Source: an uncultured delta proteobacterium (GTDB lineage: Bacteria; Desulfobacterota; Desulfobacteria; Desulfobacterales; JAFDCJ01). Taken from it: 64,000 nucleotides of DNA. The stretch is from assembly GCA_963769935.1 (NCBI GenBank), contig CAVYNY010000011.1, positions 579,032-643,031 of the forward strand, written 5' to 3'. The notes beneath the pieces were generated by a model. The model was given only the letters and a program-made list of their open reading frames with translations. It had not been told where the DNA came from and made no database searches. Positions within the stretch are counted from its first letter, which is position 1. Each line of letters starts with the position of its first letter. Shown one piece after another: positions 41,615-63,630 of this stretch. Position numbers and translations under genes: made by a program.

Positions 41615-42085
41615 ATGGACATTGGATTGACAGGCAGCTCGAACATATATTACCGCAAAGTGATCCGCCGCGATAATGACGAGATTTCACTGGATGCGGA
41701 TATGATCCGCCTGTTGATTGCCGTTGATGAAAGCAAAAGCCTGAATCAGATTGCCGAAGAAGTGGATATGAGCAATACCGCGTTTAAAATTGCGCTGTCC
41801 AATCTTTTGCGGCAAGGCCTTATCGAACCCGTCCAAAAAGACCTGCTGGTGCTGGACAAATCATTTCTTGAAACACTTAGAATCAATTTATCAAAAGCGA
41901 TCGGCCCCATAGCCGAAATTCTCATTGCAGACGTTACCGAGGAAATGCAAGTGGACTCATCTGCCATCCCCATCAACCAGGCGGCCGAATTGATCACGCA
42001 ATTATCTCTTGAAGTCCCCGATGAAGAAAATCAAATGCAGTTTAAGAAATCTATGATTGCGATCCTGAACAAAATGCGAAGATAG
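41615..42085 (+). CDS. Winged-HTH-containing hypothetical protein (C-terminus resembles DUF8082)
   Basis: KSLNQIAEEV...LSNLLRQGLIE wHTH pattern and C-terminal LSKAIGPIAEILIAD helical motif. Confidence 0.7.
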   Translation: MDIGLTGSSNIYYRKVIRRDNDEISLDADMIRLLIAVDESKSLNQIAEEVDMSNTAFKIALSNLLRQGLIEPVQKDLLVLDKSFLETLRINLSKAIGPIAEILIADVTEEMQVDSSAIPINQAAELITQLSLEVPDEENQMQFKKSMIAILNKMRR

Positions 42086-42103
42086 GGCCAAGGAGCTTAA
42101 ACG

Positions 42104-43489
42104 ATGTTGGAAATAACCTGCGACGAATGCGAAAAAAAATACCGGGTGGATGAAACCAAGATGAAGGGCACGCAGGCTAAAGTAAAGTGCAAAGCCTGCA
42201 ACCACATTATGGTGGTTACCCGGCCCGGCCCGGAAGTCGGCCGGCCGCCTTCATTTTCTTCCGAAAATTACCAGCCATCCGTAACAGCCGATATACCGGT
42301 ACCGCCTCCGTCACAATCACAAAAGGTGCCGCAAAGCGTGGTTGAACGCTCCGGAGCCAAGACGGCAGAGCAGCCCGCCGCGCCGGAAAAAAGGGCAGCC
42401 GCATTAGTAAGCGGCCAGAAAATCCGTTTTGGTTTGTTTGCCAAAATAATCATTGTCATGCTGATTGTAAGCCTGCTGCCGTTGGCCGTCTTCTGGAGTA
42501 TAACGTTCAAGGAAACCAGCCAACGTATCCGTATTGAAACCGAAAATTTAATGGCCCAAACCGCCAAGGGGCTGGGAGTTCAGGTGGACAGCTGGATCGA
42601 CAACAATGTTTCGATCCTGCGGACGGCCGCCAACCTGCCGGAAATCATCAGCATGAATCGCGCTGAACAGGAGCCGGTGCTCAAGGTCATTCAAAAAGAA
42701 TATCCGTGGATGTACCTGGTATTTACCGTCGGGCTCGACGGCATGAACGTCGCCCGAAATGATGATCGTCCCTTAACAGATTATTCGGATCGTCAGTATT
42801 ACAAGGACGTGTTGGCCGGTAAAAAACTCAGCTGGCAGACCCTGATCGGCAGAACCTCCAAACAACCCGCTCTGGTGATGGCCGTTCCAATCAAATCGGG
42901 CGATACTTTGGTGGGAATCATGGCCGCTGCCATGACGATTGATGAAATTTCCAATCACATTGCCAATTGGCGCCAGGGAAAAACCGGGTTTGCTTTTCTG
43001 GTAGATGAAAAAGGCTATGTGATCGCGCATCCGGATAAACAGTATGTACTCAAACGCAAAAATCTTAACAACCATCCTCTCATTGCCAGCTTTCGCAAAA
43101 AGGGTTGGCTGACGACCACCGCCAAATTTAAGACCCCGGACGGGGAAACGGCATTTGGTTATGTGAGAAGCAATAATTACGGTTGGGCCCTGGTGCTGCA
43201 GCAACAGGATAAAGAGGTCTTCCAAGCTTTAAATCGGGTGCAGGAATTTGCCCTGATTTTATTGGGGTGTACGGTTTTGCTGGTGCTGGTTATATCCTGG
43301 TTCTCGGCCCGGACCATCGTGACTCCCATAATGAGCCTGACCGATGCCGCCGAGCGTATGAGCCTGGGAGATCTGAATGTCAAAATTGACATCAAATCAA
43401 AGGATGAGATCGGATTGCTGGCCCAGGCCATCGGCCGCATGCAGACCAGTTTGAGATTGGCCATGAACAGGCTGAGAAAAAAAAGATAG
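42104..43489 (+). CDS. Zinc-ribbon-TM-dCache-TM-HAMP membrane sensor lacking an output domain
   Basis: CDEC...CKAC (MJ0042-like), Pro-rich linker, TM, Cache motifs DYSDRQYY and FLVDEKGYVIAHP, TM, HAMP (DEIGLLA), then stop. Confidence 0.88.
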   Translation: MLEITCDECEKKYRVDETKMKGTQAKVKCKACNHIMVVTRPGPEVGRPPSFSSENYQPSVTADIPVPPPSQSQKVPQSVVERSGAKTAEQPAAPEKRAAALVSGQKIRFGLFAKIIIVMLIVSLLPLAVFWSITFKETSQRIRIETENLMAQTAKGLGVQVDSWIDNNVSILRTAANLPEIISMNRAEQEPVLKVIQKEYPWMYLVFTVGLDGMNVARNDDRPLTDYSDRQYYKDVLAGKKLSWQTLIGRTSKQPALVMAVPIKSGDTLVGIMAAAMTIDEISNHIANWRQGKTGFAFLVDEKGYVIAHPDKQYVLKRKNLNNHPLIASFRKKGWLTTTAKFKTPDGETAFGYVRSNNYGWALVLQQQDKEVFQALNRVQEFALILLGCTVLLVLVISWFSARTIVTPIMSLTDAAERMSLGDLNVKIDIKSKDEIGLLAQAIGRMQTSLRLAMNRLRKKR

Positions 43490-44061: not shown

Positions 44062-46045
44062 TTATTTCAGCGAATGCTCCCAATTCCACAGTCCCTTCCT
44101 TTTCTTCAGCTTGACACTCCTGGGCACCGGTTCTATCAAATTGACAAAAAGCGTATAGCCTGCTTTTTGCAGCGCCCTCTTCTGATCTCCCAAATCAAGC
44201 TGCCAGTTCGGGTAGGTCCAGTAATCCGGCCCATACCGGGTTATCCAGGCCTGCTCTCCTTTGGGGCTTGCAAATGGCTTCTCCAGCTGTACTTCTTCCG
44301 CCGCCGAACGGGCAACACACAGCGGCCAATTGCCTTCCGCAACGATTCCCAGCGGAATCGGACATTGTTGCGGCAGCTGTAGAAAATCTTCACTGCCAAG
44401 CTCGGGGCTGACAATTGCGCCGCTGAACCCCATGGGTTCAATAGATGCGATGGCCAGGGGATTGGCCAGATTACAAAACGGTCCGGCCCATAGGTTAAAG
44501 CCTTGAGAAGTTTTGAAAAAGGCAATCTGCCAGGGAGCGTTCAATACGAAATAGCGCGCTCCCGATTTGACGGCCGCCTGCACGTCGTCATTGACGGCTT
44601 GTTCATTGTCCGGCCAAATTGTCGGCGGAAGCCACCACCAGATCCGGGAGGCGGTTTTGCCGGACACTTTTTTAATCGCCTGGCGTGATAGCCAGATACC
44701 GAGCCACCCCTGCGGAAGAGATTTCGGCAGTGACCGATATACTTCTATTTCCTGAACCTTTGGTTTCCTTGAAATCACGGGCGGCAGGACAGGCGTAAAT
44801 TTTGAGATCCGGTTCAGGGATGCGGATGTTTGACCGAGCTGGTCCTGCAGAGCGCTGATCATGCTGTCCAGGTGCTTTTCACGCCGATCCGTCAAAAACA
44901 CCGGCACCCCGCTTTTAAATCCTTTTTGCGAGGACGGACTGATATGCAGGCGACCGCCTTTGGGTACCGCCCGTGCGATGCGCTTTATGCTGTGGGCATC
45001 CTCATCCTCGTAGCCCAGCCGAAGCACATCTCCGGGCAGCAATTCTTCCCTGGTGTTAAAATAGGCGCTTTCGGCAGTGCCCTTAATCTTTCCCACCAGC
45101 AGACCGGAACCGGTTTGACTGTGGAGGTCGATTGGATTTTGCGGACGCTGAGGCAAAAAAAAGTAATGGGTGCCGCTGCGCCCCAAAGCGTAGTCCAGCA
45201 TCTGCAGCGCATCTTTTTTCATTTGAGGGTCGCCTCCGTGATCTCTGAGGATCCGATAGCCGCAAACAGTATAATAAACATAATGCGGCCCTTTTTTGCG
45301 CCCCTCTATTTTCCAGGTGCGCACGCGGGGGATGGATAAAAGCACTTTGGCCAATACGTCGACGCTCAGATCCTGACAGGAGAAATAACGATGGGTTTCG
45401 TTGTTTTGCGGAGTAGCGCCGTCGACATGGCTGCACACAACGGCCCCGCAGGCTGCTTTTCCCTCCAAGATAACTGCTCCAGTAACATCTGCCGGAAACA
45501 CCATAACAAAGGGCACCGTGGACAAACACCTCCAGGTCAAGGCCCGGCGGGCATTCGTGCGCCAGCGTTTTGAGCTCGTCAATGTTCAACTCTCTGGGAA
45601 GCACCACCCGGTTTACCTGAAGCTGTTGGCGAACGACGCGCAGGGCCCCGGCAAAACTTACGTTGGCCAGGGTCGAAAGATGAATTTCACCGGCAAATCC
45701 GGTTTGTTTCACCAATGGCACCAGCGCTAAATCCTGAATTATGATGGCATCCGGCTTTACATGCCGCTGCAAAAGATCCAGCATTTGACCGGCCTGGGCC
45801 AGATCAGCAGGCTTCAGCAGGGAGTTGAGCGTCACAAAAACCTTAACGCCCTTTTCGTGGGCCAGATGAACCAGATCGATAAATTCCTCGAGTGTAAAAT
45901 TTTTGGCTTCCATGCGCGCTGAAAAAACTTTCAGACCGCAGTAGACGGCATCCGCCTGAGCGGCCACGGCCGCTAAAAAAGAGGCCTTGTTGCCGGCCGG
46001 CGCCAAAATTTCCGGTGGATGGGGTATTGTATTGGGTTCAGTCAT
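44062..46045 (-). CDS. U32 family protein (RlhA-like RNA hydroxylase), frameshift near 45420
   Basis: PEILAPAG, HLSTLA, EVFVHGALCYGVSGRC, RGRCVQPCRR, then KIEGRKK in the other frame. Confidence 0.85.
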
Positions 46046-46521: not shown

Positions 46522-48237
46522 ATGAACAACGACACCTTTGTTGAACCCCACGGCGGTTCACTGGTTAACTTACTGGTAGATGAGCACCGCGCAGCCTTAC
46601 TCAAGGAAATTGCCCTGAATCTTCCGGACATTACTTTAAATGACCGGCAGTTGTGCGATCTTGAACTGTTGAGCACCGGGGCTTTTTCCCCCTTGACGGG
46701 GTTCATGAACCGCTCCGACTACGAATCCGTGCTGGATCGCATGCGTCTGCAGAACAATCTGTTATGGCCGATTCCAATTTGCTTTGATGTAAACGAACTG
46801 AAGGCCCGCAGTTTGGAGGCGGGACAGTCTGTTGCCCTCAGGGATCCTGAGGGATTTCTTTTGGCGATCATGCATATTGAAGATATCTGGCAGGTCGAGC
46901 CTGAAAAAGAAGCGCTAAAGGTTTACGGCACTGCCAATCGCAGTCATCCCGGCACGGAGTACCTGTTCCAACGGGCCGGCAGCTTCTATCTGGGCGGGAA
47001 GCTGGAAGTTTTAAACCTTCCGCTGCATTTCGATTTCAAACACCTGCGCCGCACGCCGGAGGAAATCCGGGCGGCCATTAAAAAATTGGGCTGGCAGCGG
47101 ATGGTGGCATTTTTAACCCGCAATCCCCTGCACCGGCCCCAGTTCGCCATGACCATCAATGCCATGCGACAAGCCAAGGCCAACCTGCTCCTGCTTCCCA
47201 TTGCCGGCATGACGAAACCCGGTGATTTTGATCACCATACGCGGGTTCGGTGTTATAATCAAGTGGTGCGGCACTATCCGCCCGATTCCCATATTCTGAG
47301 TCTGCTGCCTTTGGCCATGCGCATGTCGGGTCCCCGGGAAGCCCTGCTGCATGCCATCGTCTCGAAAAACTTTGGCTGTTCACATTTTATCGCCGGCCGG
47401 GATCATGCCGGCCCGGGTAAGGATCACAACGGGCAGCCCTATTATGCCAGTGATGAAGCCGCCAAATTGACTGAAAAATTTGCGGATGAAATAGGTATGA
47501 CCATCGTCCCCTTCCCGGAGATGGTTTATTTGCCCTTTGAGGACGAATACCGTTGTGCCGATCAGGTGCCGGAAGGCACTCAGTTCATATCGCTTTCCGG
47601 CTCCGACATCCGTGATCGGATCCGCACCGGACGCCGCATCCCGGAGTGGGCCACCTTTCCGGAGGTCATCGAGGAGTTGCAGAAAGCCTATCCGCCGCCA
47701 CGCAAACAAGGCTTTACGGTTTTTTTAACCGGTCTGTCCGGTGCCGGCAAATCCACCATCGCTAAAATCCTTTACGCGCGCTTTCTGGAGATCGGAGAGC
47801 GTCCGGTAACCCTGCTGGACGGTGACATCGTGCGGCATAATTTATCCAGCGAGCTGAGTTTCTCCCGGGAACACCGGGATATCAACGTCCGGCGGATCGG
47901 TTTTGTCGCCAGCGAGATAACCAAAAACCGCGGCATTGCAATTTGTGCGCCCATCGCCCCCTATGCCGCCACCCGGGCTGAAATCAGAAAAATCATTGAA
48001 AACTATGGTGGTTTTGCCGAAGTCTTTGTATCCACTCCGCTCGAGGTTTGCGAGAAGCGGGATCGCAAGGGTATGTATGCCAAAGCCAGAGCCGGCCTTA
48101 TCCAGGGCTTTACCGGCATTAATGATCCCTACGAAACCCCCCAATCGCCCGAGGTTTTGATCGATACCAGCAACATTACCCCCGATGAAGCCGCTCGCGA
48201 GATCGTGCTGCACCTGCAGCAGAGAGGGTTCATTTGA
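46522..48237 (+). CDS. Bifunctional sulfate adenylyltransferase / adenylyl-sulfate kinase
   Basis: GAFSPLTGF, TRNPLH, GPREA, GRDHAG (Sat) plus GLSGAGKST, LDGD, RDRKGMY (CysC). Confidence 0.95.
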   Translation: MNNDTFVEPHGGSLVNLLVDEHRAALLKEIALNLPDITLNDRQLCDLELLSTGAFSPLTGFMNRSDYESVLDRMRLQNNLLWPIPICFDVNELKARSLEAGQSVALRDPEGFLLAIMHIEDIWQVEPEKEALKVYGTANRSHPGTEYLFQRAGSFYLGGKLEVLNLPLHFDFKHLRRTPEEIRAAIKKLGWQRMVAFLTRNPLHRPQFAMTINAMRQAKANLLLLPIAGMTKPGDFDHHTRVRCYNQVVRHYPPDSHILSLLPLAMRMSGPREALLHAIVSKNFGCSHFIAGRDHAGPGKDHNGQPYYASDEAAKLTEKFADEIGMTIVPFPEMVYLPFEDEYRCADQVPEGTQFISLSGSDIRDRIRTGRRIPEWATFPEVIEELQKAYPPPRKQGFTVFLTGLSGAGKSTIAKILYARFLEIGERPVTLLDGDIVRHNLSSELSFSREHRDINVRRIGFVASEITKNRGIAICAPIAPYAATRAEIRKIIENYGGFAEVFVSTPLEVCEKRDRKGMYAKARAGLIQGFTGINDPYETPQSPEVLIDTSNITPDEAAREIVLHLQQRGFI

Positions 48238-48239
48238 AG

Positions 48240-48800
48240 GCGGGATAAGGTAGAAGTTGGGAAGTTGGGAAGTTGGGAAAATGAAACGGGGAAACGGTGC
48301 GCGCATCGAAGATGCCCAGCTCATAGCTGATAGCTCATAGCGAGAGAAAGACAGATAGATGAGAAGGTGAGAGGGTGGAAGAGGGTGAGAGGGTAGGAAA
48401 GTTAGAAGATCAGAAGATCAGAAGCTGAGAGTCTGAAAGGGCAAAGGGCATAGAGCACGGCGCATAGAGTATAGGAAAAAGACAAACGGCGCACGGCTCA
48501 AGGCATACGGCGCAGGGCAATGGGGTTGCGGGGAATGGGCATGGGGTGGAGCCCCTGATGCGCCAGCTCATAGTTCATAGAAGATAGCTCATAAAAAAGG
48601 CTTGAAGGGGAGAGGGGGCGCTGATGAATGATTGAGTTGCTTGGGTTGTGCTCACGAATTTAGGAACTTACGAACTCAAGAGCTTATTGTCCTTTATCCT
48701 TTTACCTATCAACTATGAACTGTCAACTATCAACTCAATTAACTCAATAAACTCAATAAACTCAATTAACTCAATTAACTCAATAAACACAATCAACTTA
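48240..48800. repeat. Nested 7-nt/9-nt periodic tract
   Basis: gaagttg, gctcata, agagggt, ggcatag, cggcgca units, and aactcaat(t/a) 9-mers x6. Confidence 0.75.
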
Positions 48801-48802
48801 CT

Positions 48803-50184
48803 ATGAGCTCAATCGAAAAACCGCCGCCATCCTTATCATCGGCAAGGTCGAGGATGAAACCAGGAATCTGGCGGACACCCTGGCGGCCGAGTATCACATC
48901 AGCGCTTCGCCCAATCTGAAGGAAGCCGCCCGCCGCCTCGGCAAAGAGACATTTAATGCCATCATCTATGATTTCTTGAGCGATGGATCGGATCTGGAGC
49001 GCATTCTTCAATCTCTGCGGCAATTATCACCGACCACCCCCATAATTGTGATCGGCCGGGAGAATGATGTCCAGTTAATTGTCGGCGCGATTAAAGCCGG
49101 TGCGTTTGATTTTGTCACCAAACCCTACCCGCCTGAAAAAATCAAATTATCGGTCCACCAGGCCCTTGAAAATCGCAGCTTGAAAAATGAGATCGATTAT
49201 TTACGCCGGGAGCAGGACGTCGTCTATGATTATGATCGCATCATTGCCGTCAGTCCGGCCATGCAAAAAGCCATCAGCACCATAAAAAAGCTTTCTGGCA
49301 CGGATTCCACGATTCTGGTTACGGGCGAAACCGGAACCGGCAAAAGCTTTCTATCGGGCAATATCCATTTCAACAGTCTGAGACGCGACAAACCGTTTAT
49401 CAAGGTCAACTGCGCCAATATCCCGGAGACCCTGCTGGAAAGCGAGCTCTTCGGCCATGAAAAAGGCTCTTTTACCGGGGCCGACAAAACCCGCACCGGC
49501 CGATTTGAACAGGCCAACGCCGGTACGATCTTTCTGGACGAATTCTGTGAGCTGAGCTTTGAGCTGCAGGCCAAGCTTCTGCGGGCCATCGAAGACAAAT
49601 CCTTCGAGCGTCTGGGCGGCAATAAAACCATCCATGCCGACACCCGCATCATTGCCGCGACCAACCGCGACATCGAATCACTGGTGCGGGAAGGCAACTT
49701 TCGCGAGGACCTGTATTACCGTATAAATGTGCTCAGGATCCATCTGCCTCCGCTGCGCGAGCGCGTGGATTGCATCGAACCCCTGGCCCATTACCTCCTG
49801 TCGAAATTAGGCCGCTCCGTAAAGAAAAAAATTGATGCTTTCGAACCCGAAGTCATCGAAATGTTTCGCCAATACCCCTGGCCCGGCAATATTCGCCAGC
49901 TTTCGAACACCATTGAAAGAGCCCTTTTGATGGAAGATGAAATGGTGATCCGGAGAGAAAATATTTCATTGCCGAAAGTCGACGCCTTATCTGCCTCAAA
50001 AACCAAGCCGGCAGGACTCACGCTGTCGCCGGACCAGGAAAAGGAACTGATCTCCGGCGCCCTGGAAAACAATCTCTGGATCCAAAAGGATGCCGCCCGC
50101 CAACTGGGTATAACGCCGCGCGCCTTAAATTACCGCATCAAAAAACTCGGCATCACCCACGCCAGATGGCGGAAAAATAAATAG
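48803..50184 (+). CDS. Sigma54-dependent NtrC-type response regulator (5' end frameshifted)
   Basis: Degenerate REC (GAFDFVTKP), GETGTGKS, ELFGHEKGSFTGA, WPGNIRQL, C-terminal HTH. Confidence 0.9.
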
Positions 50185-50634
50185 GACAGCTCATAGTTCA
50201 TAGCTGATAGCTGATAGGGAAAAAGAAGGTGAGAAGGTGAGAGGGTAAGAGGGTGAGAAGCTGGGAGGCTGGGAAGCTGATAAGCTCTTATGCTCTTAAG
50301 CTTGTTCGTAAGCATCAACAACAATCACCCTAATCATTGAGCGAAACAGCGCCACACTCTCCCCTTCCCCCGCCCCATTTTTTCATACCCTCTCACCCTC
50401 TTATCTTCTCAACCTTCCAGCCTCCCGACTCCCAGCGGTTCTCGCTTTCATCCTTTTACCTTTATTAACCTTTTGCCTTTATCCTTTCACTATCATCTGT
50501 AGGCTGAGCGTCTTCGATGCCCTCACCTTCCCAACCTCCCAACTTCCATCTTTTAAGCGTCAACGCTTCCTACCCTCCTACCCTCACACCCTCTTACCTT
50601 CTTTCTTCTATCGCCTGCCTTGCTGCTTACCAAA

Positions 50635-50940
50635 TCGTAATTCATGTATGATAAAACATACTCAAATCGTATATTAAATCATACCCGGATCTTCCTAAGC
50701 GGACTTTTTTAAATTAAAGATACCACTCAGACCGGTCTCTCCCGATCGGTTGAAAATACTGTTTCTTGTAAATTACTGAGATTACGATAGTTTTAGAATT
50801 CCGAGCCTATATCCTTTTTTCTATTTTATAAACCCCGTTCAGAAAATATGTGGCACCTGGTCTTGCTCTGAAGCAGAATGTTTGCACCGGCCCTGCAAAC
50901 CCTACTGCACACGAGGCAGTCTAATTTCCTGGAGGGGGAT
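50635..50940 (+). promoter_or_regulatory. Enhancer (tandem GTA-N10-TAC palindromes) + sigma54 promoter + two-hairpin leader, copy 1
   Basis: GTATGATAAAACATAC and GTATATTAAATCATAC, TGGCAC-CTGGTC-TTGCT at 50851 (one base too long), duplicated at 53553-53856. Confidence 0.7.
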
Positions 50941-50946
50941 TGAATT

Positions 50947-53515
50947 TTGTTATTTATCAGGTTTTATATTCAAAAATATGTTGATTATTTAAATTCATCG
51001 AGCCCACGCAGATCGGACGGCAGAGGTCAGAGGACAGAAGTTGAGAGGTTGGGAAGGTGGGAAAGTGAGACCGCCAAACCGCTCCTAAAGTGTAACGATC
51101 CTCGAACGAAGTGCTCCTTGAGCGCAGCGCTCATATTTATTTTTTTCGCTTTGTGCCTTGCGCCTACCTTTGCATCTGCCGCAGATGTAACACTGGCTTG
51201 GGACAGCAATCAGGAAAATGATGTCGCCGGTTACCGTCTGCATTATGGAACTTCCAGCGGAAATTATACGCAAAATATCGATGTCGGCAATATAACCGAG
51301 CATACCCTTACGGGACTCCAGGATGGGACCACCTATTATTTTGCGGTCACGGCCTATGATCTTGACAATTATGAGAGCGGCTATTCACAAGAACTGTCTT
51401 ACACGGCCGGCAACCAGAACAGCAGTCCCACCACCCCGGCCGTGCCCAACAGCCCCTCCAGCGGGTCTGTGGGTACCAGCTATTCATTCAGCACCTCGGC
51501 TTCCGACCCGGACGGCGATGCGATTGAATACCAGTTCGATTGGAGCGGCGGAGCCGCCTCCAGCTGGGGGGCTGCCACGCGAAGCCATTCCTGGTCCTCG
51601 GCCGGCACTTATTGTGTGAAAGCGCACGCCCGAGACAGCCAGGGTGCGATCTCCGACTGGTCGGGCTGCCGTAATATATCGATTGCCACACCGACCTATA
51701 CGATTTCAGCCTCAGCCGGATCCAACGGCAGCATCTCACCTGCCGGAACGGTGACGGTCAACCAGGGTGCCGGCCGATCATTTACCATCAATGCCAATCA
51801 GAGCTATCAGGTGCTGGATGTCCGGGTGGACGGTGCTTCTGTGGGGGCGGTCACCTCCTATACGTTTACCAATGTGACCCAAAATCACACGATCAGCGCC
51901 AGCTTCGTTTCCGTCAACCAGGCACCGACAGCCAATGCCGGACCGGATCAGACCGTCACGGAAGGCGCGGCGGTTACATTAAACGGCAGCAATTCCAAGG
52001 ATCCGGGGGGAAGCATTGCTTCCTATCAATGGCGGCAAATCGATGGCTTGACGGTGCAGCTGTCGCAGGCCGGCACCCAACGGGCCTCCTTTGCAGCGCC
52101 CAACGTCGGCATGGCCGGTGAAACCCTGACTTTCAGGCTGACCGTAACGGACAACGGCGGTCTGCAGGGTGTCGATACCTGTGTGGTGACGGTCACCAAG
52201 GCGGCGGTTGTGGACAGCGACGGTGACGGGGTGCCGGATGCTCAGGATGCCTTCCCGTACGATCCGGACGAGTACCTGGACACCGACGGCGATGGTGTTG
52301 GAAACAATGCCGACCTTGACGACGACAACGACGGTTTGCCGGATGAATGGGAACTGGCATATGGTTTAAATCCGCTCAGAAACGATGCCGCCGAGGATCC
52401 GGACGGCGATGGGGTCAACAACATCAACGAATTCAATCTGGGGACCGCGCCCAATCACTATGAAGGCAATTTTAGTCCGAATCCTCCGATCCTGTTGACG
52501 CCGGAAAATGGAGCGGTTGTCGGATTAACCCCGCGGCTTGAAACCGATCAGTTTGATGATCCCAACGTTAACGATGTTCACGGCAAAACCCAGTGGCAAA
52601 TTATCCGGGCTTTCGATGGTGTCCCTGTCTTTAATGTTACTTCATCAAATTCTTTAACCTCTATTGAGATACCCAATCTGATCCTGGAAGAAGATACCGA
52701 ATATGTATGGCAGGTTAAATTTTTAGATAATCACGATTCGGCATCAGATTGGTCAGTTGCCGGTCATTTTACAACTGATTTCAATAACCAGGATTCAAAC
52801 GGAAATGGTATACCGGATGACCAGGAATTAGATACCACGCTTGACCTGGACCAAGACGGTATTCCGGACAGCGAACAAGATGACATTAAAAGTGTCGTCG
52901 TTGAAGGAGGATCCACCCAAATTGGAATCAGCATTCGAGATAGAAGACAGGGTTCAATCCATTGAAGCGTTCGAATCGGAAAACCTCGCCGACCTTCAGC
53001 CGCACTGCCAAATCCATTGACCAGCCGGCAAATCTACCCTATGGGGATTGATCAGCTTTAAATTGATTGTCGACCAGCCCGGGGATGAAGTTGAAGTGGC
53101 ACTCCATTTATCCGGGGAGGCTCCGGCGGACAGTACCTGGTTCAAATACGATCCGGTGGACGCTGTCTGGTCTGACTACTCCGCCTATACGGAATTCAGT
53201 GTCGATCGCAAAACAGTTTATTTAACGCTTGTGGACGGCGGTTTTGGCGATGCGGACGGCATCGCGAACGGCATCATTGTCGATCCGTTGGGACTTGGCG
53301 CAACATCTTCACCTGCACCTGCGGAAGGTGCATCGGGCGGAGGCGGCGGTGGGGCAGGCTGTTTCATATCCGCTTCGTCTAACAGTATAGAAATAACCAG
53401 CCCGGCCGCTATCCGGCAAAAATTAGCGGAGCTTGCATTTATGTTGACGCTATTGCTGGTAATTTTCATTTTGGCTCGATGCCTGAAAATGTTGAACTCC
53501 TATAAAGTCCGCTGA
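50947..53515 (+). CDS. Surface protein 1: FN3/PKD-like/Ig repeats, Asp-rich (TSP3-like) repeats, choice-of-anchor-U-like domain, CFI-box C-terminal anchor (frameshift near 52945-53045)
   Basis: Signal peptide ASA-ADVTLAWD, YYFAVTAY, NQAPTANAGPDQ, DSDGDGVPD repeats, DGGFGDADGIANGIIVDP, GGGGGGAGCFIS + TM + basic tail. Confidence 0.85.
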
Positions 53516-53552
53516 CAACGCTAAGTACTCTATTTCGTAATTACAGTAACGT

Positions 53553-53856
53553 AATCGTAATTTATGTATGATAAAACATACTTCATCGTATATTAATTCA
53601 TACCCGAATCCGCCGAATAGGGACTTTATTTAAATTGGAGATGCACCTAGTCTGGTCACTCCCGGTCGGTCGAAAATATTGCTTCTTTTAACCTGCTAAA
53701 ATTAATAGGATTCTATCACTTCAGACCTTGATCCTTTTTTGAATTTATAAACCCCGTTCAAAAAATAACTGGCACTGGTATTGCTCTAATCCAGGACGTT
53801 TGCACCGGCCCTGCAAACGGTGCAGCCCACGGCTGCATAATTTAATGGAGGGGGAC
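53553..53856 (+). promoter_or_regulatory. Enhancer + sigma54 promoter + two-hairpin leader, copy 2
   Basis: Same palindromes as copy 1, TGGCAC-TGGTA-TTGCT at 53770-53785 with canonical spacing, SD GGAGGGGG. Confidence 0.75.
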
Positions 53857-53862
53857 AGTATT

Positions 53863-55687
53863 TTGTTAATTACCAGGTTTTGTACTCAAAAAAATATTGA
53901 TCATTTAAATATACCGAGACCGCATAGAAAGGCAAAATTCCATAAGCCTTTATCCTTTTGCCTTTTACCTTTCTTGCCGCGGCATAGTCCCGCCCTATCA
54001 GGACGTCGACGGGTATCCTTTATCCTATCAGCTATCACCTATCAACTATCAACTGCCGCAGGCCGTAAGCTTATGCGCGTCGCCTGTTACGTTTTTCCTT
54101 TTACCTTTTGCCTTTATTCGCCCTGTGCCTGTATGCCTGCATTTGCTTCCGCCGCGGATGTCACTTTGGCATGGGATTCGAACAAGGAATCCACTGATAA
54201 AGCGGATACATTCTGTACTATGGTACTTCCAGCAGGATTTACGCCATAATGTTGACGTGGAAAAAAAGACCAGATATACCGTTACGGGACTTCAGAATGG
54301 GGCAACCTATTATTTTGCCGTTACCGCCTATGACGGGAACGGTCTGGAGAGTGCCTATTCCGCAGAGTTGGTTTACACTAACATTGCGGACAGCGACGGC
54401 GACGGGGTGCCCGATGACCGGGATGCTTTTCCGCTGGATCCTAACGAAACCTTGGATACAGACGGCGATGGTGTTGGAAACAATGCCGACATTGACGACG
54501 ACAACGATGGTATGCCGGATGCATGGGAAACTTTGCACGGCTTAAATCCGCTCAGAATGATGCTTCCAGGATCCTGGACGGCGATGGGATCAGCAACATC
54601 GACGAATACAATATGGCGGGACCGAACCCAATCACTTATGAACAATTTTCCCACCTGAATCCCCCGGCTCTATTATCGCCTTCAAATGACGACATTGTCG
54701 GACCTAACCCTGTCGGCTCTGAAACCGACAGTTTCACGATCCGGATGCATAACGATGTCCTACGGCAAATCCCAGTGGCAAATTTTCCGGGCCGATGGTG
54801 TCCCTGTCTTTAAGTAACTTCAGCCATTCTTCACCCTCTATTGGAATACCCAATTTGATCCTTGAAGAGAATACAGAATACGTGTGGCAGGTTAAGTTTA
54901 TAGACAATCACGGTTCGCATCTGATTGGTCCGAAAGCGGCGCTTTTACTACTGGTGACAGTTGCCAGGATGCAGACGGTAATGGTATTCCTGATGATCAG
55001 GAATTGCGACATCACGCCTGGATCTGGATGAAGACGGCATGCCGGACAGAGAACAAACGATATTAAAGTGTCCAGATTCAAGGGGAATCCACTCAAATCG
55101 GACTCAGCATTCGAGATGCAGATACGGTCCAATCCATTGTGGCCATCGAATCGGAAAACCTCGCAGACCTTCAGTCACACGCCAGTTCTATCAACCAACC
55201 GGCAAGTCTTCCTTATGGGCTGATCAGTTTTAAGTTGATCGTCGACCAGCCCGGGGATGAAGTTATGGTGACGCTGCATTTATCCGGAGACGGCTCCGGC
55301 GGACAGTACCTGGTTTAAGTACGATCCGGTGGAGGATGTCTGGTATGACTATTCCGCTTATACCGAATTCAGTGCCGATCGCAAAACAGTTTATTTAACG
55401 CTGGTGGACGGCGGCTTTGGCGATGCGGACGGCATTGCGAACGGGATTATTGTCGATCCATTGGGGCTTAGCGATAACGTCTTCACCCACGGATGCTGGA
55501 TCGGGCGGTGGGGGCGGTGGAGCCGGCTGTTTCATATCCGCCTCATCTAACAGTTTAAAAATAACCGGTCCGCGCTATCCGACAAAAATTAGCTGAGCTT
55601 GCCTTCGTGTTGACCCTGATGCTGGTAATCTTCATTCTGACTCGATGCGTGAAAAAGTTGAACTCTATCTCTCGCAGAGTCCGCTGA
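53863..55687 (+). CDS. Surface protein 2 (shorter paralog: FN3, Asp-rich repeats, anchor domain, CFI-box), many frameshifts
   Basis: ASA-ADVTLAWD, YYFAVTAY, DSDGDGVPD, DGGFGDADGIANGIIVDP, ggagccggctgtttcatatcc (GAGCFIS). Fragmented across frames. Confidence 0.7.
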
Positions 55688-55709
55688 AGACTCAGAGGAA
55701 CCTAAGCTT

Positions 55710-55890
55710 AATTAGTGGTTGAGCGGAAACCCGCCCACATAAGGCTGTGTTGGGTTTCGCTCTTGGAAATCCATGACGGCATGTAGACCTTGATTGACGT
55801 AGGTTGGGTTGCGGGACGAAACCCAACATTATCGGTCGGGCTCAACCCAACCTACCCGAAATCTGGGCTTTTCGTTCAGGTACTAATTAA
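55710..55890. repeat. IR element containing a GTAG-type REP-like palindrome
   Basis: gtaggttgggttg...caacccaacctac inside aattagtggttgagcggaaaccc / gggcttttcgttcaggtactaatt ends. Confidence 0.65.
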
Positions 55891-56209
55891 CCTAAATTGG
55901 GTAAACTACGTAACATTGTGGATTTATTTTCATACTTTTATGGTAAGGATTCCCTTATAAGCAATCCTTCCGAAAACCTGTTTTTATTTTATCTATCTGA
56001 TATCATTTCAAAACGAAAAATGTTTACCTCCTGGTATATCTTTTGCAGCTCCAAAAGTTAAAACCCACCTGGAAGAAGCACAAAAATTAGCTCCAAACAG
56101 GAGGGTTTGAAAATGTCGGGAAAAAAGAGAAATCAAACCGACAAGCAAACAGAGGGATTCAGGGGGTTCAAAACCCCAATCCATATAGCAACTATACCTC
56201 CCCAAACCA

Positions 56210-56253
56210 GAATCCGAAGGAGAACTTTGCCCTCCTTCGGATTCAATTTTTTT
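56210..56253 (+). terminator. Intrinsic terminator
   Basis: GAATCCGAAGGAG-9 nt-CTCCTTCGGATTC followed by aattttttt. Confidence 0.65.
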
Positions 56254-56695
56254 GGGCTACAGGAATTTTTTGCCGCGATTAATAAGCAGATTTGCTTACA
56301 TAATTGAAAGCTTTGGGAACTTTGCCTGTAAGTTGTGAGTTGTCTGTTGTTTGTTGTTTGTTGAATATCGGCCGGCATCGCTGGTTTTGTTGTAAATTGC
56401 GTTTTATTATTGGTTACAACTGCATTAATTTGGTTGAACGGCCTGATTCTCAAAAACTCACGAGCTTCTTAACCGCTCACCCACTCACCGTTTCACCCAC
56501 TCACCGTTTCACCCACGTTTCACTCGTTTCATTTTCCCAACTTCCCAACCGTCCCACCTCCCCCACTTCCATCTTTTTCCTACACCCTATGCGCCATGCT
56601 CTATGCCCTTTGCCCTGTCAGCTTCTCAGCTTCTGATCTTCTTATCTTCTCATCTTCTTTCTTTTCCCTACCAGCTATCAGCTATGAGCTACGAG

Positions 56696-58891
56696 CTATG
56701 AGCCGCTGCTTCGTCGCCTCCAAATCGCTTTGGCAGCCAACAACAGGAATATCGCCACAAACACAATCGCCAGTTCGCGGCCTCTGATTTCACGCCATAG
56801 GTTCCACCATGACGGCGAGCCGGTTGAGCGGCGAGGCGGCCGCCGAAATAAAACAGCTGAGGTCGCTCGGAATCAGGCCGTCGAACAGATCATCGAGCGG
56901 TGAACCACCCGAACCTCCGTTTGGATCCGTCGCAGAACCAAAAGCGAGGGGATCGACGATAATACCGTTCGCGATGCCGTCCGCATCGCCGAAGCCGCCG
57001 TCCTTAAGGGTCAAATAGACCTCCCTGCGGTCGGAACTGAATTCGGTATAGCCGGAATAATCCAGAAAGACCGCATCAACGGGATCATATTTGAAGCAGT
57101 TGCCTTCATTGAAAGCCGGCTTGGAAAGATAAATGGTCACCGTCGTCTCATCGCCGGGGTTATTGACCAGCACTTTGAAGTCAAGCAAAGCGAATTCAAA
57201 AAAATTCGGTTTCCCTTTTGACCCGGAAATCACTTGCGGATCGGTGGGGTCTTCCGCTGCGAGTGAAAGGATTGAATAAGCATTTTCGGCATCCCGAATG
57301 CTGACACACATTTGGGCAGCATCATTATCAACACTGACACATTTGATATCATTCTGGGTCTTGTCCGCCGTACCGTCCGCATCGAGATCCAGCGTTTCGA
57401 CAACCTCCTGATCATCCGGCACACCGTTTTTATCCAGATCATGTCCGGCATAAGCCGTGGTGAATTCTCTTTCTTCAGACCATTCCGATGCATCGTCATG
57501 GTTGTCGATGTACTTTACCTTCCAGACGTAGTCGGTGTCTTCCTCCAGGATTTGATTGGGCAGTGTGATGGAGGTCAGGGAAGCGGAAGTGGTGACATCG
57601 AACACGCAGACATCATCAAAGGCCCGGACAATCTGCCACCGGGTTTTGCCGTGGACATCGTTGACGTTCGGGATCATCAAATTGATCGGTTTCAAGCCGC
57701 GGGGTTAATCCGACAGTCGCTCCATTTTCCGGCATCAACAGGTTCGGAGGATTCGGACTAAAATTGCCTTCATAGTGATTCGGCGCGGTCCCCAGATTGA
57801 ACTCGTTGATGTTGTTGACCCCATCGCCGTCCGGATCGTCGGCGGCATCGTTTTTGAGCGGATTTAAACCGTACGCCAGTTCCCATTCATCCGGCAAACC
57901 GTCGTTGTCGTCGTCAATATCCGCATTGTTGCCCTCGCCGTCGCCGTCGGTGTCCAGGTACTCGTCCGGATCGTACGGGAAGGCATCCTGAGCATCCGGC
58001 ACCCCGTCACCGTCGCTGTCCACAACCGCGGCCTTGGTGACCGTGACCACACAGGTATCGACATCCTGCAGACCGCCGTTGTCCGTCACGGTCAGCCTGA
58101 AAGTCAGGGTTTCACCGGCCATGCCGACGTTGGGCGCCGCAAAGGAGGCCCGCTTGGGTGCCGGCATGCGACAGCTGCACCGTTAATCCATCGATTTGCT
58201 GCCATTGATAGGAAGCAATGCTTCCACCCGGATCCGTCGAATTGCTGCCGTTTAATGTAACCGCCGCGCCTTCCGTGACGGTCTGATCCGGGCCGGCATC
58301 CGCTGTCGGTGCCTGATTGATGGAAACGAAGCTGGCGCTGATCGTGTGATTTTGGGTCACATTGGTAAACGTATAGGAGGTGACCGCCCCCACAGAGGCA
58401 CCGTCCACCCGGACATCCAGCACCTGATAGTTCTGATCGGCGCTGATGGCAAACGATTGATTGGCGCCCTGGTTGACCGTCAGTGTTCCGGCAGGTGAAA
58501 TGCTGCCGTTGGATCCGGCTGAGGCTGAAATTGTAATATGTCGGATTACCGACCGTGTAGGACAGTTCTGTTGAATAGCCGCTCTCATAATCGTCAGAAT
58601 TATAGGCGGTGACCGCAAAATAATAGGTGGTCCCATCCTGGAGTCCCGCAAGGGTATGCTCGGTTATATTGCCGACATCGTGTTGCTGGTATAATTTCCG
58701 CTGGAAGTTCCGTAATAAAGGATATAACCGGCCAGATCGGATTCGCTGTTGGCATCCCACGCCAGGGTGACATCGGCGCAGTGGGCAACAACAGGCACCA
58801 GGATCATAAAGCCGGTCAGGGCGGCAAAAAGAAAAAATCCTCGGCACAACCGGGATTTTTTTCGAGGACGGTTTAACGTTTTTGATTTCAT
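56696..58891 (-). CDS. Surface protein 3 (paralog, opposite strand), several frameshifts
   Basis: MKSK... signal peptide AHC-ADVTLAWD, FN3, PKD-like repeat, DSDGDGVPD repeats, DGGFGDADGIANGIIVDP, LSCFIS + TM + RRR tail. Confidence 0.8.
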
Positions 58892-58957
58892 TGAAGCACC
58901 TTCCAATTTCGTTATGCACCGCGCAAGGCGCAGCAACCATGAAAGGTGCTACGTTTG

Positions 58958-59050
58958 CCCGGCAACCCTGCCGCCATATTCCGGAATATTGGAACTTAGG
59001 CCAGTGGCTTTGCGTCCCACCCTTTCGAGTGGTTTGCCTTTATCAAGCAA
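58958..59050 (-). ncRNA. Cyclic di-GMP-I (GEMM-I) riboswitch
   Basis: Minus strand reads AAAGGCAAACCACTCGAAAGGGTGGGACGCAAAGCCACTGGCCTAA...ATGGCGGCAGGGTTGCC. This matches the GGCAAACC...GAAA...GGGACGCAAAGCC...CCTAA consensus and lies in the 5' leader of surface protein 3. Confidence 0.93.
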
Positions 59051-59083
59051 TTCTTCCTGAAAAAATAAGTCACCTTCGTATAG

Positions 59084-59099
59084 AGCAAATTAAATGCCA
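59084..59099 (-). promoter_or_regulatory. Sigma54 promoter upstream of the riboswitch
   Basis: Minus strand TGGCAT-TTAAT-TTGCT with canonical 12-nt GG-to-GC spacing. Confidence 0.75.
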
Positions 59100-59591
59100 A
59101 ACATTGAGATTTTTGGGGATCGTTTTAATACTCTTAAATTATTATAAATATAAACAGCGATATCCTTTGATTGCAATTTTGATTGTATCTTTTTGTTCAA
59201 ACAACATGGTATTTCAATTACAAGATGGTAATTTAAAGACAGAGGACAGATGCCAGAAGACAGACGACAGAGATCAAAGGCTAAAAAGCTTGAAGGCTAT
59301 TTCTCTGGGGCGAAGCCTACTATTCCTCTGGGGTAGGCAGGTGCTATCGTACTGGGGTTAGATGCTTCTTTGTAGATGAACGCGGCGGATTTAACTGGGG
59401 CAAACTCAATAAACCTGTACGTCAGCGCTTCCCAGCTTTTTTCAATCAGCCATGAACTATGAGCTATCTGATGGCGCGTCAGCGCCTCATCACCCACTTT
59501 CTCAACTTCTCACCGTACTTGCCCCGTTAAATTTTCCACAGGAAAGAAGCAGAGCGAATTGGTTCTTAAATCATCAGCTCATAACAAAAGG

Positions 59592-59654: not shown

Positions 59655-59891
59655 ATGCATGCGACTGCTAAAGAATTGAGGTTTAATTCAAAAAACCTTC
59701 TGGATGTTGTTTCTCGCGGAGAAGAGGTCATCATCACCTATCGTGGTAAACCCTGTGCGAAATTAATCCCTCTCAAGGAGACTGATAAAAAAGTATTAAA
59801 AGCGGATCCTCTTTTCGGCATATGGATAGATCACCAGGATGTGAAAAATGTGGAAAAATATGTTCGAAAGCTGCGAAAAGGAAGGTTTTAA
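59655..59891 (+). CDS. Phd/YefM family antitoxin
   Basis: TAKELR...GEEVIITYRGKPCAKLIP, 78 aa, stop overlaps the toxin start. Confidence 0.9.
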   Translation: MHATAKELRFNSKNLLDVVSRGEEVIITYRGKPCAKLIPLKETDKKVLKADPLFGIWIDHQDVKNVEKYVRKLRKGRF

Positions 59892-60268
59892 TGCTGATTG
59901 ATACTGATGTGCTTGTCTGGTACATGCGTGGAAATGAAAAAGCCAAACGAGTGATTGAAAATTCTGATGGTTTTTCCATATCAGTCGTAACCTATATGGA
60001 ATTGGTGCAGGGACTTCGAAACAAAGAAGAATTAAATGTTTTAAGAAATTCTTTTAAGAGTTGGAATGCCGGGATAATTTACATTAACGAAGAAATTTCA
60101 ATCAAGGCTATGTTTTTGGTCGAACAATATTTCCTCAGTCATTCTCTACAACTGGCAGATGCTTTAGTTGGCGCCACCTCAATGATATACGGTCTTCCCT
60201 TGCTGACGGCTAATACAAAACACTATACCGTAATAAAAAATATTATTTTAAAAAAATTCCACCCATAA
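59891..60268 (+). CDS. vapC: VapC (PIN domain) toxin
   Basis: MLIDTDV, ELVQG, LADALVGATS, LLTANTKH. Confidence 0.92.
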   Translation: MLIDTDVLVWYMRGNEKAKRVIENSDGFSISVVTYMELVQGLRNKEELNVLRNSFKSWNAGIIYINEEISIKAMFLVEQYFLSHSLQLADALVGATSMIYGLPLLTANTKHYTVIKNIILKKFHP

Positions 60269-61515: not shown

Positions 61516-62551
61516 TTGGATTCTGTTTTATATGAAAGAGAATTAGACAGGATCAACAGGATCAACTGGATATCTTGCTATTCTTTGTTTCCGGAAGAAA
61601 CAATGAATAATCAATCGCCTCCGGCGAGAAAAATTTGGTAGTTTATTACTGACAATCTTATTATTTGAATCAATTGGGATTCGCATCACTTTCGCGAAAG
61701 CGTTAATTAAGCTTTTTTATTTGCCTCAGGTAAATAAAAAAAGTAATATCCCCATAAAGCACGGTAGGAATGCCCCTCACGGGACACCCCCCGCGCAGAC
61801 CCGTACGTGCGGAACTACCGCATACGGTTCCTGCCTTGGGTAATGACAACCAAACCGCTGGTTGGGCCAGGGATGCTTACACCTTGGGTGCGCGGTGAAC
61901 TGCATCTGCCTGTCTCGCTCAGCTGCCTTCCGTACGTCGATCAGTCCACGCGACACCTTCCTGCCCGAACTCTGGGTTCCGGTGGTGGGCGACTTGACCC
62001 GCGTTCCCCTTGGCCAACCCCCTTCCCTGACCAGACTCCTCCAGTCGTTGGGCACGCTCCCGGCGTGCTTGAGAACTGCTCGTTCGCCTGTTTTGACGGT
62101 ACTATGGGGCTGTATGACTCCCTAACGGCGTACGTGTGGGACGTTCGGCTCCTTCACCTTCTCCCACCGATCTAAACCATCTCTAGCTTTCAGATCCATT
62201 AGGGCCTCCCGGCTTCCGACACCAAAGTATACAGGTACATGCTCAGGGTCTCTGACTCCGCAGGGCCGTGCAGCTCCTTGTCTTTAGCGTTGCTGTCCGT
62301 GTCGCCTTCCGTGTACAGGAATACCGTCGGCGCCCTCGATTGGGATTTTTCGTAGCTCAATACCTGGCCTATACCAACCCCTGTCAACGTTTCCCCAAGT
62401 GAGTTACCCCGCATGGGACATGACTCGGGGACAAAGTGGTTGACCTACCTTCCTTTGTGTGGCATTCTCAGCCATACCTTTGTGCCGGCTTGGCCAGCGC
62501 ATCTCCTGTAAATCCTGTCAAATATTTCTAAATATAAATCGCATCCACTCC
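61516..62551. mobile_element. MITE-like element, gacaggat family, copy 3 (interrupted by the group II intron)
   Basis: Left end ggattc...tagacaggatcaacaggat, internal tcgcctccggcga, right end tcctgtaaatcctgtca...aaatcgcatcca. Confidence 0.7.
61760..62502 (-). mobile_element. Group II intron RNA, ORF-less (RT ORF internally deleted)
   Basis: 5' ATGCGCTGGCCAAGCCGGCAC, domain V GAACCGTATGCGGTAGTTCCGCACGTACGGGTC, domain VI GGGGGGTGTCCCGTGAGGGGCATTCCTACCG. Residual IEP ends fused as RKAAERDRQMQFTA|HPRCKHPWPNQRF. Confidence 0.88.
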
Positions 62552-62557
62552 TTAAAT

Positions 62558-62683
62558 CTATAAAAGCTTTGACTCTGCGGTGTATAATCTTGCAATCATC
62601 TCCTCCAGCGCTTTTGTCCACGGTCGCGGGTGAATTCCGAATTTGCGCATGATTTTGGAACAATCCAGCACCAAATTCCCCCT
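62558..62683 (-). pseudogene. rfbD: 3' remnant of dTDP-4-dehydrorhamnose reductase
   Basis: VLDCSKIMRKFGIHPRPWTKALEEM resembles the RfbD C-terminus. Upstream of and co-oriented with rfbA, cut by the IS end. Confidence 0.7.
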
Positions 62684-63292
62684 GTGTAGGATAGTTGTCA
62701 CCTCTGACCGATCTGATCGCCGATGGGGAAGCCCCCCCGGGGGGCTTCCCCATCGGCGGCAACCCAATATTTCTCCGCGTAATTTAATTTTGGGGGCGGA
62801 GGAGGTTGACATGCAGTATTCTGATATGTTCAAAAATGCGATGATACAAAAAATGACCGGTCGTACCCAAACTTGCGGATCAGGGTGTTTATCTGGCCTC
62901 TGAATCGACTTTTTACCGGGTTCTCAAAGAGCATAAGATGCTGGGCATCGGCAGCTTCAAAATCCGCTGTCTGCCGCCGTCCAAAGCAGCATGTAGCCAC
63001 CGGTCCCTGCCAGGTGTGGAGTTGGGACATAACGTACCTGAAGACTCCGTTAAGGGCCTATTTTTCTATCTTTACATGATTGTCGATGTTTGGAGCCGCA
63101 AAATCATCGCCGCCCAGATCTTTGCTGAAGAATCCATGGATCACAGCGCGATGCTATTGGCCCATGCGTGCATGATCCACGGTGTGCAGCCTGAAGAGCT
63201 CGTGCTTTATTCCGACAACGGTGGCCCGATCAAAGGTGCCGCCATGTCGGCGACTTTACACAAACTGGGCGTCATTGCATCGTTCTCACGGC
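62684..63292 (+). mobile_element. IS3-family element remnant (deleted and frameshifted transposase)
   Basis: TG-starting end tgtgtaggatagttgtca, OrfA start MQYSDMFK, rve motifs GPCQVWSWDITYL, LYMIVDVWSRKI, SDNGG. Confidence 0.85.
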
Positions 63293-63630
63293 TCGGGCTT
63301 CTACTACTGCGCCACTTCATCAAAATCTGGCGCCGACAGGCCCACTTTATTATCCCCGCTAAATCCAACAATCGCCCGAAAGTCTTGCGGACGCTCGGCA
63401 AAGGCGATTATCTATGCCAATCTCGAATCCAAGACCATACAACCCTCATCGTTCGGGTACTTCGTCTATCGAAAGGGGTATCGTCGACGCCGCCTGGTTA
63501 CCTCTCTGCTGCACCCAAGTCTGTTTCCGGCTTCAGAACTGGCTAATCTGTATCACATGCGCTGGGATATCGAGACTTATTACGTGATTTCAAACACACC
63601 CTGCGGGCTACATCCTGGCATTGTCACACC
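63293..63630 (+). mobile_element. IS4-family transposase fragment
   Basis: RLVTSLL...[16 protein letters not shown] (Y-x2-R-W-x-I-E signature). Confidence 0.7.

Follow-up and report, generated by a model that had tools for sequence, protein, structure and literature searches.

Which enzyme might process the cysteine-bearing C-terminal tails of three paralogous exported proteins, and what governs their expression, are the questions raised by a locus of an uncultured delta proteobacterium. The stretch analysed, hereafter the window, comprises 64,000 nucleotides of this organism's genome (G000:C11:579032-643031; G000 is 96.7% complete); C-numbers denote contigs of G000, other G-numbers related or phylum-sample genomes, and L-numbers extracted loci. 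Genes 1 to 3 of the window lie beside a sigma54 activator gene, and each encodes a protein ending in a CFI motif, a transmembrane (TM) helix and a basic tail. Four observations, namely the tail anatomy, the coupling of a CPBP protease to a membrane partner encoded elsewhere in the genome, the homology of this partner to the core of a longer CFI box, and the co-occurrence of the partner with short CFI tails, underlie a reading that we consider slightly more probable than its negation: the CFI tail would be a myxosortase-type signal processed by protease and partner, with expression driven by the activator and sigma54 and, for gene 3, switched off by a riboswitch. The locus is real, conserved and built mostly from catalogued parts, with a regulatory layer ordinary in kind; its main value lies in a concrete two-gene candidate for the CFI sorting enzyme and in the split-box observation.

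CFI tails and a coupled protease–partner pair

The tails of genes 1 to 3 share one anatomy, consisting of a linker, CFIS, a spacer, a hydrophobic TM helix and a basic tail, and display the general arrangement of Cys-type sorting signals (invariant Cys signature, TM and basic cluster). Across relatives (61 genomes, 60 besides G000), the choice-of-anchor U domain is followed by one of three tail forms: a long form comprising CFI, a helical domain and a TM; a short form with TM, to which the window tails belong; and a TM-less form ending 5-11 residues past the Cys. Since the same U domain precedes the long, the TM-bearing short or the TM-less CFI tail depending on the genome, CFI appears to be the shared signal, and its C and F are invariant in 23/23 TM-type and 20/20 TM-less tails. 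The gene 1 tail region was matched in 36 of the 61 genomes. The sequence-only reading of this DNA had placed the tails in the CFI-box-CTERM family, which did not hold: the 69-position model NF041770 (cut-off 40 bits) has no match on the window tails, and its best G000 match, the sole one in the genome, is the partner protein on contig C22 (Table 1). With the 14-position model sort_motif_CFI (NF041763), gene 3 scores 15.4 bits against a cut-off of 15.9 and its close ortholog in G018 passes; genes 1 and 2 are not among the matches listed.

As had been stated, no processing enzyme lies in the window; the candidate pair is on contig C22. The protease, one of five PF02517 proteins in G000, is single-copy in 40/41 of the genomes holding it (61 searched), and its EExxxR, FxxxH and HxxxN motifs are invariant in 29/29 sequences. 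Its top named relative is MrtJ, at 40.4 bits (cut-off 75), and it scores below every Mrt cut-off. The other four CPBP proteins of G000 were covered by the NCBIfam scan, and the genome profile covered the partner-coupled CPBP alone. The partner gene adjoins the CPBP gene in 30/30 loci. The partner has no CFI motif of its own; its residues 177-217 align with the long CFI-box core (hhalign: probability 95%, E 2.4e-8), the partner profile in turn finds the long CFI boxes of G023 (E 1.9e-6), and R185, D186, L189, G195, Y202 and Y203 are invariant in 35/35 partners. Moreover, sub-threshold NF041770 matches occur in 21/22 genus relatives, nearly all in the partner, versus 2/14 controls. A fold search with the partner model (predicted local distance difference test, pLDDT, 90) returned HEAT/alphaRep repeats alone, all at E>0.001, and one with the long CFI box model (pLDDT 81) gave nothing clear (best Z 4.4); a complex prediction of partner, CPBP and gene 1 tail scored 0.08 against a mark of 0.32, with controls unfolded, and is counted neither way. 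The shared long-box core offers a structural reason for the HEAT-repeat partner. A protein search of 1.84 billion representatives yielded 974 matches at E<=1e-30.

A set of 38 genomes with one from each family shows the partner in 19/21 with short tails versus 1/17 without (both 19, short tail only 2, partner only 1, neither 16; p 1.5e-7). Phylogenetic profiling, which the earlier reading had proposed, suggests, with two exceptions, an association of the short tails with the HEAT partner of this CPBP; among the enzymes that it had named, exosortase (PF09721, TIGR04178) was not found in G000, and the best rhombosortase score, with three of the four rhomboid domains of G000 scanned, was 37 bits against a cut-off of 84. 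The protease ortholog is missing in five of these genomes in which long boxes alone were seen (G023, G025, G029, G032, G037); G037, which has long boxes apart from one TM-less tail, is counted as an exception in the 38-genome table, and G023 has no PF02517 match. In a broader sample of 201 phylum genomes, 11/11 in which a short tail was seen carry the partner or a divergent form, and the long-only genomes G190, G246, G120, G063 and G104 gave no direct partner match in a less sensitive search.

On the favoured reading, the products of genes 1 to 3 would be Sec-exported, beta-sandwich-rich surface proteins, with export and signal cleavage predicted from sequence. The HEAT-repeat partner may recognise the short tag and the CPBP protease may remove the TM and basic tail, as homology and co-occurrence suggest; the Cys of CFI would be lipidated by analogy with MYXO-CTERM; and the type II secretion system, of which G000 has GspD and whose gspF follows the pair in G040, would carry the protein to the surface for an adhesive role, as precedent and domain content suggest. 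If so, Cys-type sortases would extend to many sediment and soil deltaproteobacteria and to substrates without a membrane anchor. A further and rather doubtful step would make the CFI box a split sorting module, in which the long form combines CFI and an RD..G..YY helical hairpin in one chain with no dedicated partner, and a partner-borne hairpin with CPBP captures the short or TM-less CFI peptide in trans; this would amount to a two-component sortase by fold complementation, acting on a CAAX-like bacterial tag and even on anchorless substrates.

The three paralogs described by the sequence-only reading as following the activator are all present; gene 3 is convergent, on the minus strand, and none has an intact open reading frame (ORF) in the present assembly. 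ADVTLAWD stands, as claimed, in all three, at 51181 (+), 54154 (+) and 58777 (-), and the choice-of-anchor U assignment is borne out by NF041766 (cut-off 32 bits) at 74.7, 67.6 and 64.8 bits in genes 1, 2 and 3, the gene 2 translation being read across frame breaks. The described C-terminus also recurs, with DGGFGDADGIANGIIVDP at 53234, 55407 and 57002, followed by CFIS, hydrophobic helix and basic tail, except that the gene 3 linker is acidic (...DLSCFIS) and not Gly/Ser. The reading frame changes once in gene 1 (~52942), five times in gene 3 and about a dozen times in gene 2, and the TM/basic tail of genes 2 and 3 lies in a different frame from CFIS. The extra bases at 52942, 55286, 55473, 55573 and 58537 do not appear in short-read contigs from public runs, which also differ from the assembly at 58678-58688, so that the indels at the positions checked are probably assembly errors; this check reached three of the gene 2 breaks and contradicted all three, with most others uncovered. 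Gene 2 could be a decaying pseudogene. Orthologs with intact reading frames are present in relatives. The upstream regions of genes 1 and 2 are duplicated (78% over 378 bp). Elsewhere in G000 there are two more genes with a U domain: one, on C16, is an FN3 paralog under a sigma54 site and a riboswitch of its own, and the other, on C39, codes for a CAP-domain protein without TM whose last residues are CFIDTLLK; a U-domain tree left 14 of its 25 branches open.

Probable sigma54 activation and a riboswitch

Each of the three genes had been credited with its own sigma54 promoter. Genes 2 and 3 do carry canonical sites, for which the background is 62 of 20,000 random 450-bp windows of the genome; gene 1 has an 11-nt spacer as assembled, and its site becomes canonical in one short-read contig that lacks base 50859. 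Gene 1-type promoters bear a tandem 16-bp box (box Y) at about -205 and -182 from the TGG, usually after a TTAC-N6-GTAAT box (box X); gene 3-type promoters bear box X at about -132 and one degenerate Y copy, and the gene 3 upstream region has no tandem box Y. When 154 sigma54-like sites of G000 are ranked with a tandem-box matrix built solely from six other genomes, the first three places go to gene 1 (27.2), gene 2 (22.8) and the C16 paralog (14.0). Synteny makes it likely that the adjacent activator binds the tandem box ~180-205 bp upstream of genes 1 and 2, where it would elicit sigma54 transcription; gene 3 is also of sigma54 type. A candidate binding site is hereby defined for a pseudo-receiver sigma54 activator. 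No sigma54 site was seen upstream of other CFI-tailed genes such as that of the C39 CAP-domain protein, so the sorting system and the regulon appear to be separate things.

Several side observations concern these promoters. A sigma54 site before a glnD-like gene (G000 C11:399583, -) carries a perfect box X at -124 (at -133 in gene 3), and box X may therefore belong to a broader regulator. The promoters of G049 (L041:10615-10800) and C16 (L001:10198-10521) combine tandem box and riboswitch, which indicates that both control layers can be stacked on one gene. An identical 21-nt hairpin with no Rfam match follows the gene 1 and gene 2 promoters (50880-50900, 53798-53818), and its GGCCCTG core also occurs in leaders of several relatives' riboswitch-less paralogs. 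Short degenerate repeats (e.g., AGCTCATAG, TCAACTT) fill intergenic 48240-48800, 50185-50620 and 56440-56700 and also lengthen the leaders of genes 1 and 2.

The activator is, as had been claimed, an NtrC-type AAA+ protein; it is a single close copy in G000 (next paralog 39%), and a scan of genome contigs for its relatives gave at least four close matches, those among the 80 matches listed, the remainder being generic bacterial enhancer-binding proteins (bEBPs). No start codon occurs in its frame ahead of 48976, the ATG at 48803 being off frame by one base, and its 5' end is probably frameshifted by another indel at a position outside read cover. Orthologs occur in 17 of the 60 relatives, and 13/17 have a U/CFI gene within ~6 kb on the same contig, in agreement with the expected synteny; of the remaining four, two lie close to the end of a contig, a third has an FN3 gene and the fourth has no such neighbour. 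The sat-cysC gene lies directly upstream in 14/17, and the gap, 41-132 bp in several, suggests a sat-cysC and activator operon, from which a sulfur- or PAPS-related input (PAPS, 3'-phosphoadenosine 5'-phosphosulfate) can be guessed. The convergent A/B gene pair is also found in five genus members, and four genomes have the riboswitch-type gene alone where the promoter is visible.

The receiver phospho-Asp is N, S or V in 3/10 orthologs readable at that position, the receiver Lys is Arg in 4/11, the acid pocket is missing, and no kinase gene adjoins the activator in the window; the domain is probably a degenerate, non-phosphorylated pseudo-receiver. A phosphorylated NtrC-type response regulator was considered and set aside on these same grounds. 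According to PMC10714721, FleQ-type c-di-GMP (cyclic diguanosine monophosphate) binding involves an Arg after Walker A and an ExxxR motif; in the 11 activator orthologs, with both sites placed by eye and no FleQ sequence, Walker A (GKSFLSGN) is followed by Gly, not Arg, and no ExxxR was seen at the expected site.

Gating of the whole locus by c-di-GMP, as proposed by the sequence-only reading, is not borne out: FleQ-type residues were not seen in the activator, and the riboswitch occurs on gene 3 only, downstream of its promoter, and is predicted to be OFF. The specificity G of the gene 3 aptamer is presumably position 20. Ligand specificity follows G20 versus A, according to PMC6140456. A hairpin burying the ribosome-binding site (RBS) occurs in 11/11 leaders folded; the hairpin sequestering the Shine-Dalgarno (SD) sequence is compatible with a fully folded aptamer, the SD-open fold consumes the P1 3' strand in most leaders, and by folding, SD opening becomes 2.5-9 kcal/mol costlier in 11/11 leaders once P1 is locked. 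Across nine aligned leaders (9/11), the OFF and ON folds are 94-97% paired. With moderate confidence, folding points to a kinetically controlled translational OFF switch in which bound c-di-GMP would block translation; a surface protein would then probably be turned off by c-di-GMP. Control of adhesins by c-di-GMP is usually ON, the opposite of this prediction. Because gene 3 carries the predicted OFF riboswitch, the cell could show different paralogs at low and high c-di-GMP.

This regulatory scheme competes with one that we judge unlikely, though not strongly so, in which the activator controls sat-cysC or other genes, another bEBP drives the CFI genes, the linkage is inherited synteny and the riboswitch is ON. 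It draws on some 60 other bEBP-like matches in G000, on neighbours in G001, G013, G018 and G051 that have only gene 3-type promoters without the tandem box, and on the fact that most linked genomes belong to one genus; the linkage of sat-cysC, activator and CFI gene nevertheless outlasts rearrangement in two other families (divergent in G049; G051), and the top of the matrix ranking holds the tandem box at CFI/FN3 promoters only. Several points detract from the favoured scheme: glnK-amtB (12.1), in fourth place, comes near the score of C16; gene 3, without tandem box, scores -0.3; the sign of the P1-locking test is partly built in; whether P1 is present or not, the SD is mostly paired at equilibrium; and neither the OFF fold (129/500 shuffles) nor the ON fold (36/500) shows significant covariation in 9/11 leaders. 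An ON riboswitch is disfavoured by the fit of the full aptamer to the SD-sequestering hairpin and by the use of the P1 3' strand in the SD-open fold.

Fate of the CFI tails

Processing of the tails by the CPBP–partner pair likewise has points to its debit. The CFIS motif stands ~20 residues ahead of the TM, unlike in MYXO- or JDVT-CTERM. G037 and G049 (both 97% complete) have short tails, with neither partner nor protease ortholog found; in G041 the partner is present and the protease ortholog was not found; the partners in G163 and G253 are divergent, and no CPBP was seen alongside them; and among partner-positive genomes only long tails were seen in G100, G135 and G255, and none in G248. In addition, short-tail status in the co-occurrence counts was read from selected best-listed matches rather than by a blind census, and related genomes do not count as independent.

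On another reading, which we hold to be improbable, the window TM tails would be simple uncleaved inner-membrane anchors, with the Cys lipidated or disulfide-linked by general machinery and the pair serving TM-less tails only, such as that of the C39 protein. In its favour are the strong hydrophobicity of the TM (19-residue mean 2.3), the distance of the Cys from it, and G049, where several tails of TM type and one without TM occur in the absence of the pair; moreover, the co-occurrence profile cannot separate TM-type from TM-less tails, because most partner-positive genomes have TM-less tails too. Such a division of labour is countered by the equal invariance of CFI in both tail types, and by G163 and G253, in which only TM-type tails were seen and a divergent partner is still present.

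Least likely, and in our view quite improbable, is that the pair acylates or otherwise modifies the Cys in the manner of LnsAB, or serves polysaccharide, with any cleavage left to, e.g., a rhomboid at the Gly-rich linker: LnsB is a CPBP-fold protein of the two-component acyltransferase LnsAB (PMC7387801), G000 has four rhomboids, G023 combines long CFI boxes with no PF02517 match, and in three genus members the pair sits in an exopolysaccharide cluster (in G000, Wza/Wzc/Wzy at C22:328000-355600; L367, L368), a setting that tells against the favoured reading since the pair could serve polysaccharide instead, yet the CPBP retains all catalytic motifs, which LnsB does not, the pair moves outside the genus as a two-gene cassette into unrelated contexts, none of three rhomboid domains scanned, out of four, reaches the rhombosortase cut-off, and the gene 3 linker is not GlyGly. 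The cluster also holds an ExeA-like ATPase, an HD domain protein, a radical SAM protein, an ABC transporter and an asparagine synthase.

Neighbouring genes and known systems

Table 1. Coordinates of the locus and of the candidate protease–partner pair (window positions unless a contig is named).
Feature	Position	Strand	Remarks
Sat-CysC, bifunctional sulfate adenylyltransferase/adenosine 5'-phosphosulfate kinase (PAPS synthesis)	46522..48237	+	NF004040 842 bits, cut-off 669
Activator, sigma54 enhancer-binding protein	48802..50184	+	receiver, AAA+, Fis helix-turn-helix (Pfam)
Gene 1 box X (TTAC-N6-GTAAT)	50626-50641	+	predicted activator site
Gene 1 tandem box Y (GTAT-N8-ATAC type)	50646-50661, 50669-50684	+	predicted activator sites
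Gene 1 sigma54 promoter	50851..50867	+	11-nt GG..GC spacer as assembled
Gene 1	50947..53515	+	signal peptide (start codon uncertain), FN3, PKD/Ig repeats, TSP3-like repeats, Ig, choice-of-anchor U; C-terminus: Gly linker, CFIS at 53360, spacer, TM, basic tail
Gene 2 box X	53540-53555	+	
Gene 2 tandem box Y	53566-53581, 53588-53603	+	
Gene 2 sigma54 promoter	53770..53785	+	canonical
Gene 2, shorter paralog	53845..55687	+	FN3, TSP3-like, Ig, U, CFIS at 55528, TM, basic tail
Gene 3, convergent paralog	56696..58891	-	FN3, PKD, TSP3-like, Ig, U, acidic linker, CFIS at 56855; C-terminus: WREIRGRELAI-type TM, then basic tail
Gene 3 expression platform	58895..58950	-	predicted; anti-SD 58950-58941 pairs RBS 58904-58895 around inner hairpin
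Gene 3 c-di-GMP-I riboswitch aptamer	58958..59048	-	RF01051 85.3 bits, cut-off 35; G at ligand-specificity position
Gene 3 sigma54 promoter	59084..59099	-	canonical, upstream of aptamer
Gene 3 Y-like box	59200-59185	-	single, degenerate
Gene 3 box X	59232-59217	-	perfect match
CPBP/Rce1-like protease, candidate sortase	C22:339339-340028		gene overlaps partner gene
Partner, 499-residue membrane protein	C22:339959-341458		C-terminal HEAT repeats; NF041770 20.6 bits

Sat-CysC was correctly identified by the sequence-only reading; its suggestions that PAPS or dTDP-rhamnose genes serve the proteins found no support. The sole PF13469 sulfotransferase found sits on another contig, and the rhamnose link appears incidental, because rfbA is in none of 11 syntenic and 8 further loci and all that is left of rfbD is a 3' remnant of ~32 residues (PF04321 positions 255-286, E 0.0025) beside an insertion sequence (IS)/intron remnant. 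Window 61780-63550 holds this remnant together with a group II intron fragment (RF02005, 62468-62246) and an integrase-core IS remnant. At 59657-60268 (+), an antitoxin-like small ORF precedes a PIN-domain gene (PF01850), a VapBC-like pair not found in the syntenic loci examined. A frameshift-split U32 peptidase-family gene (44062-46045, -) is the divergent neighbour of sat-cysC in most syntenic loci. At 41074-43489 (+), a group adjoining the locus in several relatives comprises two small winged-helix-like genes and a zinc-ribbon/dCache/HAMP membrane protein without output domain, the latter a possible sensor for the pseudo-receiver activator.

Among known systems, the earlier parallel with PEP-CTERM does not extend to mechanism. 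According to PMC1569441, PEP-CTERM genes under PrsR/PrsK have a sigma54 promoter and a repeated upstream activator box ending TTTACA; like those genes, the present ones stand singly behind long leaders and have both a sigma54 promoter and an upstream box that is repeated. Unlike them, they show no PEP motif in the tails, no exosortase was found in G000, no kinase is adjacent, the activator scores 344 bits against 502.6 for PrsR (TIGR02915), and the box does not end TTTACA and lies farther upstream. Six PEP-CTERM-like tails (VPEP, TM and basic residues) nevertheless occur in G000 despite no exosortase being found (C1:163720, C9:83271, C11:279749, C16:16701, C16:44477, C31:7495), and one also lies beside the syntenic locus in G051. 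GlyGly-CTERM (TIGR03501) has no match on window or relatives' tails. With regard to the riboswitch, the aptamer is the same as RF01051 c-di-GMP-I and full-length, here under a sigma54 promoter and with a predicted translational OFF platform.

A CPBP route of the myxosortase kind fits better than the PEP-CTERM parallel, and the tail system is a candidate variant of Cys-type C-terminal sorting whose CFI motif is already in NCBIfam as a putative sorting signal. Myxosortase has reportedly been tested earlier by co-expression in E. coli. As in the MYXO-CTERM/MrtX and JDVT-CTERM/MrtJ systems, as far as the available passages of bioRxiv 10.1101/2023.06.07.544157 and PMC11980579 describe them, an invariant Cys follows a flexible linker and precedes a TM and basic tail, a CPBP glutamic-type protease is the candidate sortase, and type II secretion is present; MYXO-CTERM Cys lipidation is itself only proposed in PMC11980579. 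Unlike the tails in those passages, the window signature is CFI rather than GCGC or Cys..DP (GCGC and a DP nine residues past the Cys are absent from the tails), a ~20-residue spacer separates it from the TM, the signal also occurs in TM-less and long forms, and the CPBP is coupled to a HEAT-repeat membrane partner with no counterpart seen there. The MYXO- and JDVT-CTERM models (TIGR03901, NF033191) gave no match at E<=0.1-0.5 on a window tail and eight relatives' tails. The main text of the bioRxiv paper contains neither 'CFI' nor 'Desulfo', and no paper naming the CFI_box_CTERM or sort_motif_CFI families or their enzyme was found in a search that did not extend to subscription journals. As in NCBIfam CFI_box_CTERM (long example in G037, 103 bits), the CFI motif is C-terminal after choice-of-anchor U; unlike in that family, the window tails are without the 69-position helical domain, and the missing core stands in a separate gene.

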